Part shown: positions 21,861 through 24,800 of the stretch, piece by piece
Layout: each line of letters opens with the position of its first letter
How positions within the stretch are numbered: position 1 is the first letter of the stretch
DNA from: Escherichia coli
Lineage (GTDB): Bacteria > Pseudomonadota > Gammaproteobacteria > Enterobacterales > Enterobacteriaceae
Direction: 5' to 3' (one strand)
Length of the DNA stretch: 30,137 nucleotides
Assembly (NCBI RefSeq): GCF_003334355.1
Contig: NZ_QOWP01000040.1
The notes under the pieces: model-generated
Told to the model about the DNA's origin: nothing
The model's input: the letters and a program-made list of their open reading frames with translations, nothing else
Databases searched by the model: none
Made by a program: the position numbers and the translations under genes

Positions 21861-24800
21861 TTACTCGTCTTCCAGTTCGATGTTGATACCCAGCGAACGA
21901 ATCTCTTTCAACAATACGTTGAAGGATTCTGGCATGCCCGGCTCCATCTGATGGTTGCCGTCCACGATGTTTTTATACATCTTGGTACGACCGTTCACGT
22001 CATCAGACTTAACGGTGAGCATTTCCTGCAGGGTGTATGCTGCGCCGTATGCTTCCAGCGCCCACACTTCCATCTCCCCGAAACGCTGACCACCGAACTG
22101 TGCCTTACCACCCAGCGGCTGCTGAGTAACCAGGCTGTAAGAACCGGTGGAACGCGCGTGCATCTTGTCGTCGACCAGGTGGTTCAGTTTCAGCATGTAC
22201 ATGTAACCAACGGTTACCGGACGCTCGAACTGTTCACCAGTGCGACCATCGTACAGGCGGATCTGACCGGAAGTCGGCAGGTCGCCAAGTTTCAGCAGCT
22301 CTTTAATTTCTGCTTCTTTCGCACCGTCGAACACCGGCGTTGCGATTGGCATACCTTTGCGCAGGTTTTCAGCCAGACGCATAACTTCTTCATCGCTGAA
22401 GGTACTCAGGTCAACTTTCTGACGAACGTCAGCGCCCAGATCGTACGCACGCTGGATGAATTCGCGCAGTTTCGCGACTTCTTGCTGCTGTTTCAGCATG
22501 GCGTTGATCTTGTCGCCGATACCTTTCGCAGCCATACCCAGGTGGGTTTCGAGGATCTGACCGATGTTCATACGAGACGGTACGCCCAGCGGGTTCAGTA
22601 CGATGTCTACCGGCGTACCGTTTTCATCGTAAGGCATATCTTCGATCGGGTTGATCTTAGAAATTACACCCTTGTTACCGTGACGACCTGCCATCTTGTC
22701 ACCAGGCTGGATACGGCGTTTAACCGCCAGATATACCTTAACAATCTTCAGCACGCCCGGTGCCAGATCGTCGCCCTGGGTGATTTTGCGGCGTTTCGCT
22801 TCGAGTTTCTTCTCGAACTCGTGTTTCAGTTCGTCATACTGCTCAGCCAGCTGTTCCAGCTGATTTTGTTTCTCTTCGTCGGTCAGGCCCAGCTCCAGCC
22901 AGCGATCGCGCGGCAGTTTGTCGAGCTTCTCAGCTTCAACGCCACCGGCTACCAGCACAGCACGGATACGGCTGAACAGACCCGCTTCGAGGATCTGCAG
23001 TTCTTCAGACAGGTCTTTCTTCGCCTGTTTGAGCTGCATTTCTTCGATTTCCAGCGCACGTTTGTCTTTTTCTACGCCATCGCGAGTAAAGACCTGAACG
23101 TCGATAACCGTACCGGATACACCGTTTGGTACGCGCAGAGAAGAGTCTTTAACGTCAGAGGCTTTCTCACCGAAGATCGCACGCAGCAGTTTTTCTTCTG
23201 GGGTCAGCTGAGTTTCACCTTTCGGCGTAACCTTACCAACCAGAATGTCGCCACCGGTCACTTCCGCACCAATATAAACGATACCGGATTCATCCAGTTT
23301 GGAGAGCGCAGCTTCACCCACGTTCGGGATGTCAGCGGTGATCTCTTCTGGCCCCAGCTTGGTGTCACGGGACACACACGCCAGTTCCTGAATGTGGATG
23401 GTGGTGAAACGGTCTTCCTGAACAACACGCTCGGATACGAGGATGGAGTCTTCGAAGTTGTAACCATTCCACGGCATGAACGCTACGCGCATGTTCTGAC
23501 CAAGCGCCAGTTCACCGAGGTCGGTGGACGGACCGTCTGCCAGCACGTCGCCACGTTCAACCGGTTCACCCAGAGACACACACGGCATCTGGTTGATACA
23601 GGTGTTCTGGTTAGAACGGGTGTATTTGGTCAGGTTGTAGATGTCGATACCTGCTTCACCCGGATACATCTCGTCTTCGTTAACTTTGATAACGATACGG
23701 GAAGCATCCACGTACTGAACGACACCACCACGTTTAGCTACCGCAGTTACACCGGAGTCAACGGCAACAGCACGTTCCATACCAGTACCAACCAGCGGCT
23801 TATCAGCACGCAGAGTCGGAACGGCCTGACGTTGCATGTTCGCACCCATCAATGCACGGTTGGCGTCATCGTGTTCCAGGAACGGGATCAGGGACGCACC
23901 GACGGATACCACCTGCTGGGTGGATACGTCCATGTAGTCAACCTGGTCACGGCTGAACAAGCTGGATTCGCCTTTGCTACGGCAAGTTACCAGGTCTTCT
24001 ACGAAGTGGCCTTCTTCATCCAGGTTGGAGTTCGCCTGGGCGATAACGTAGTTGCCTTCTTCGATAGCAGACAGGTAGTGAATTTCGTCAGTTACAACAC
24101 CGTCGGTCACTTTACGATACGGAGTCTCAAGGAAGCCGTATTCGTTAGTCTGTGCGTACACGGACAGAGAGTTGATCAGACCGATGTTCGGACCTTCAGG
24201 GGTTTCGATTGGACATACGCGACCGTAGTGAGTCGGGTGTACGTCTCGAACTTCGAAGCCTGCACGTTCACGGGTCAGACCGCCTGGGCCGAGTGCGGAG
24301 ATACGACGTTTGTGCGTAATCTCAGACAGCGGGTTGTTCTGGTCCATAAACTGAGACAGCTGGCTGGAACCGAAGAACTCTTTCACTGCTGCGGAAATCG
24401 GCTTGGCGTTGATCATATCCTGAGGCATCAGGGTATCCAGATCGCCCAGAGACAGACGCTCTTTCACCGCACGCTCTACACGTACCAGGCCAACGCGGAA
24501 CTGGTTTTCCGCCATTTCGCCAACGGAACGGATACGACGGTTGCCGAGGTGGTCGATATCATCGACTTCGCCTTTACCGTTACGGATATCGATGAGCTTT
24601 TTCATAACATCAATGATGTCGTCTTTGCTCAGGATACCGGAACCTTCGATTTCTTCGCGCAGCAGAGAACGGTTGAACTTCATACGACCAACCGCAGACA
24701 GGTCATAACGGTCTTCGGAGAAGAACAGGTTCTCGAACAGGCTTTCCGCTGCTTCACGAGTCGGCGGCTCGCCAGGGCGCATCATGCGGTAGATTTCTAC

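Follow-up and report, generated by a model that had tools for sequence, protein, structure and literature searches.

Location, identity, and operon context of rpoB

The window, i.e. the entire 30,137-nt stretch of Escherichia coli DNA analyzed here, carries rpoB on its minus strand (25889..21861; 1342 amino acids and a stop codon), and its translation is that of rpoB (b3987) of E. coli K-12 MG1655. In the computed list of open reading frames, the gene appears as a minus-strand ORF of 1353 codons (21861..25922), the translation of which is recognizable as RpoB; the 11 extra upstream codons (to 25922) lie outside the gene proper. Residue numbers given here assume that rpoB starts at the ATG at 25889, which is the start annotated in K-12, and this start is supported because the product agrees from end to end with that of the annotated K-12 gene. 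Specifically, a codon-by-codon comparison of the two genes, both 4029 nt in length, revealed 0 amino acid differences over 1342 residues from MG1655 RpoB (b3987, NP_418414.1), a protein that many isolates annotate as WP_000263098.1. At the nucleotide level, rpoB differs from the K-12 gene at 13 sites (codons 71, 175, 381, 397, 489, 623, 647, 694, 846, 847, 872, 887, and 1003), all of which are synonymous and none of which lies inside any resistance cluster. The rpoB DNA is 100% identical to that of several natural E. coli isolates, including strain 720632 (annotated WP_000263098.1), and a search of 5426 complete E. coli genomes located the gene in 5421. Two of the rpoB matches in this genome collection are on records labeled as plasmids.

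In the PDB, full-length RpoB also matched beta chains of E. coli RNA polymerase (E = 0). The top match was the standard beta chain of this enzyme (u214, e.g. 10ma_I, 353 entries), aligned over residues 1–1342 versus 1–1342 with 3004.6 bits, and every column of this alignment is identical in the displayed part, which reaches about residue 980. Three other beta sequences in the PDB (5uaj/5ual/6cux; 5uaq/6byu; and 3lu0/5uag/5uah), which we take to be rifampicin-resistant mutant enzymes, scored about 3–4 bits lower. At this level of sequence agreement, a chance match is not in question as an explanation of the identity of the gene.

The genes flanking rpoB are arranged as in K-12 MG1655, in the order rplK-rplA-rplJ-rplL-rpoB-rpoC. 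rpoC, encoding the beta' subunit, lies downstream of rpoB on the minus strand (17561..21784) and is co-transcribed with it; it differs from its K-12 counterpart at 16 nucleotides, all of them synonymous, such that RpoC has 0 amino acid differences from K-12 RpoC. The SecE, NusG, RplK, RplA, RplJ, and RplL proteins are each identical to those of K-12, and the gene order from secE to rpoC is that of K-12. Thus, both the full-length identity and the rplKAJL-rpoB-rpoC context identify the gene as the E. coli orthologue of rpoB.

The spacer between rplL and rpoB, upstream of rpoB, contains a terminator-like hairpin (26144..26169, minus strand) with an 11-bp stem that includes 7 G-C pairs and is followed by a T run. 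The Rfam model RF00630 "Pseudomonas sRNA P26" matched at 26143–26204 on the same strand with 71.1 bits versus a gathering score of 36; this match coincides with the hairpin and is probably not a separate sRNA gene. Most simply, the RF00630 match and the hairpin represent an internal attenuator/terminator of the rplJL-rpoBC operon, which we take to be the known rplL-rpoB attenuator.

All rifampicin-resistance clusters are wild type

Cluster I, also referred to as the 81-bp RRDR, is by convention described in E. coli numbering (PMC3975073), and the boundaries of clusters I–III used here are those defined in PMC11084559. The reverse complement of 24291–24371, read in frame 1, yields 27 codons corresponding to RpoB residues 507–533, and this segment (24291..24371, minus strand) is wild type with 0 nucleotide differences from K-12. 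Read directly from the minus strand, the codon for D516 is GAC (24342–24344), that for H526 is CAC (24312–24314), and that for S531 is TCC (24297–24299). The claim of the initial annotation, made from the letters of the sequence, that 24291–24371 is a wild-type cluster I with D516, H526, and S531 intact is, therefore, borne out by the translation and by the numbering. Its description of the locus was right with respect to position and left the minus strand unstated; likewise, the part of its quoted 32-residue string that represents residues 507–533 is correct, while the last five residues (GPGGL, 24276–24290, reaching residue 538) lie beyond the 81-bp interval to which the string was assigned.

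The remaining clusters gave the same result. Cluster II (residues 563–572; 24174..24203, minus strand) is wild type and the same as in K-12, as is the neighborhood of cluster III (residues 684–690, NMQRQAV, including R687; 23820..23840, minus strand). The N-terminal cluster (residues 143–148, RVIVSQ, including V146; 25446..25463, minus strand) is also wild type and the same as in K-12; V146 marks an N-terminal resistance cluster described in the literature. Altogether, clusters I, II, and III, the N-terminal cluster, and every other position of RpoB match the sensitive reference, as is the case for a wild-type rpoB allele.

A wild-type cluster I could in principle coexist with a resistance substitution elsewhere in rpoB, or rpoC could carry an adaptive or compensatory mutation. 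Mutations that confer resistance are documented beyond cluster I (PMC3975073), and the initial annotation considered cluster I alone, while proposing an alignment of the whole of RpoB across the clusters. That alignment, with 0 differences from MG1655 over 1342 amino acids, revealed no substitution at any known resistance position, including 146, 507–534, 563–572, and 687, and full-length RpoB and RpoC are both identical to the K-12 MG1655 proteins. With this identity, substitutions outside cluster I that would confer resistance or adaptation are ruled out, and we regard the probability of this scenario as practically nil.

Cluster I in the population and in a resistant contrast allele

The exact 81-nt sequence of cluster I is present in 4301 of the 5421 genomes with rpoB and, thus, is the majority allele; the remaining 1120 differ from it by at least one base. 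We inspected four sampled strains from these 1120 genomes, which make up 20% of the E. coli genomes. In three of the four, the differences are synonymous only, and all three have the silent change TCC>TCG at S531: in RM14723 and Eco_23-2678 it is the sole change in the 81 bp, and in E2348/69 codons 532 and 533 are also silently changed. In all three strains the protein is annotated as WP_000263098.1.

The fourth strain, 19213 (NZ_CP135077.1; RpoB annotated as WP_109955121.1), is a human isolate from Hungary that has the classical rifampicin-resistance substitution H526Y in its chromosomal rpoB. Its allele shares 80 of 81 nucleotides with the window and differs in that codon 526 is TAC (Tyr) there, whereas it is CAC (His) here, the changed base being equivalent to position 24314 of the window. 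Because the comparison picked up H526Y in this strain, it can tell resistant alleles from wild-type ones, and the window falls on the wild-type side.

The 81-bp RRDR used for molecular resistance testing in Mycobacterium tuberculosis is the homologous region and shares the E. coli numbering (PMC3975073), and the logic by which a phenotype is inferred from a genotype is common to that testing and to our reading of the window. In M. tuberculosis, the RRDR is a clinical diagnostic target, whereas in E. coli it serves mainly as a laboratory marker for mutation spectra (PMC11084559).

Long antisense ORFs over rpoB and rpoC

On the plus strand, an ORF of 962 amino acids (21951–24839) overlaps the RRDR in the codon-aligned antisense frame of rpoB, and a second one of 803 amino acids (17687–20098) runs over rpoC, also in the codon-aligned antisense frame. 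Two stop-free antisense ORFs of such length, 962 and 803 amino acids, raise the question of whether the former is a real overlapping gene that also constrains the DNA of the RRDR. However, stop codons in this frame arise only from the sense codons TTA, CTA, and TCA, of which rpoB uses only one in 1343 codons and rpoC five. When synonymous codons were shuffled, the observed stop-free length was equaled or exceeded in 57% of trials for rpoB and in 8% of trials for rpoC. Moreover, among the 11 differences from K-12 that lie inside the rpoB antisense ORF, 9 alter its amino acids while all are silent in rpoB. Because these 9 differences change the antisense protein and leave RpoB unchanged, the antisense frame shows no constraint. 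Based on codon usage and the substitution pattern, we reject the 962-amino-acid ORF as a gene, which would be a highly improbable reading of the locus, and consider the ORFs antisense to rpoB and rpoC as by-products of codon usage. For the two ORFs taken together, it would be very surprising if they were translated into real overlapping proteins.

Remainder of the window compared with K-12

The window comprises purH, purD, zraR, zraS, zraP, yjaH, hupA, yjaG, nfi, hemE, nudC, and rsd, followed by thiC, thiE, thiF, thiS, thiG, and thiH, and then by rpoC, rpoB, rplL, rplJ, rplA, rplK, nusG, secE, and the 3' end of tufB. This is the K-12 gene order, read in reverse from purH to tufB and lacking yjaZ and sroH, and positions 1–25 kb are 100% identical to strain PSS-12 (NZ_AP027697.1). 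The gene content bears on a further possibility, namely that rpoB is wild type and the strain is nevertheless resistant by a mechanism that does not involve the target and is encoded beyond the window, e.g. a rifampin ADP-ribosyltransferase of the arr type carried by a plasmid or integron. Clinical and ESBL isolates are among the best-matching genomes, which is compatible with such a mechanism, but none of our results points to it. In the 30-kb window, each gene has its place in the K-12 core-gene order and none is additional; we consider non-target resistance very unlikely, and it has no bearing on the finding regarding the rpoB allele itself.

Between thiH (end at 17319) and rpoC (end at 17561), 24 bp (17485–17508) replace a 945-bp segment of K-12 that contains yjaZ, which encodes heat-shock protein C, together with the sRNA gene sroH. 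As 3741 of 5426 complete E. coli genomes carry this segment, its absence represents a common presence/absence polymorphism.

The periplasmic sensor part of ZraS (codons about 40–200; about 5540–6015, minus strand) differs strongly from its K-12 counterpart: block 101–150 shares 22 of its 50 residues with K-12, and so does block 151–200. The protein is 7 residues shorter than in K-12, with hardly any difference in its transmembrane and kinase parts. The window's form of the most divergent segment of zraS (5540–5860) was matched at ≥95% identity in 4184 of 5426 genomes, so that K-12 is the minority type, and the variation in the sensor domain looks like a two-allele dimorphism. In the neighboring genes, ZraP lacks two residues near its C-terminus and has an A>T substitution next to this deletion, and the substitutions Q48H and V49F distinguish ZraR from its K-12 counterpart.

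Upstream of the thiCEFSGH operon, the expected TPP riboswitch (RF00059) was matched by Rfam in the thiC leader (11774–11874, plus strand; 74.8 bits). thiC (11955–13850, plus strand) differs from K-12 at 25 nucleotides and 6 amino acids (R14Q, H39Q, V73A, V135L, A143T, and H193R), and these substitutions are all confined to the first 193 residues, i.e. to the first third of thiC. The DNA of thiE, thiF, thiS, thiG, and thiH is 100% identical to K-12. This mosaic divergence suggests that a recombination breakpoint may lie inside thiC. Across the window, these side observations are nothing unusual for E. coli.

Implications for rifampicin susceptibility

As established in structural and genetic work on RNA polymerase bound to rifampicin, the beta subunit has a pocket beside the RNA exit path that is lined by residues of clusters I–III. 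Rifampicin makes contacts with D516, H526, and S531 there and, once bound, prevents the nascent RNA from growing beyond 2–3 nucleotides. Identity with the sensitive reference at every known resistance position is a direct observation; drug binding and a susceptible phenotype are what we infer from it. Because the pocket is unchanged, rifampicin would be expected to bind normally and target-site resistance would not be expected. Judged from sequence, 24291–24371 is almost certainly cluster I of a chromosomal rpoB, in its canonical wild-type allele and within the rplKAJL-rpoBC cluster, and the polymerase should bind rifampicin normally and lack target-site resistance.

The initial annotation held that the genotype predicts rifampicin susceptibility. 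This is valid for target-mediated resistance only, with plasmid-borne determinants and those at other genomic sites being out of view; accordingly worded, the prediction would apply to the drug target, and arr enzymes as well as permeability or efflux changes encoded beyond the 30-kb window would fall outside it. Because the outer membrane of E. coli provides modest intrinsic tolerance to rifampicin, "susceptible" is to be understood in a relative sense.

With regard to selection, the 29 differences from K-12 in rpoB and rpoC combined include 0 non-synonymous ones. On the basis of this comparison, the all-synonymous pattern is the signature of an essential housekeeping gene under strong purifying selection, and neither RpoB nor RpoC bears a mark of selection by rifampicin or of adaptation to the laboratory. 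The description of rpoB as an unselected housekeeping allele is, with the 13 rpoB and 16 rpoC differences all being synonymous, fair with respect to rifampicin selection.

The finding of a wild-type rpoB is ordinary for E. coli, and it neither opens nor closes a biological question. Its value lies in quality control: it indicates an ordinary E. coli chromosome, the RNA polymerase genes of which have experienced neither rifampicin selection nor laboratory adaptation.
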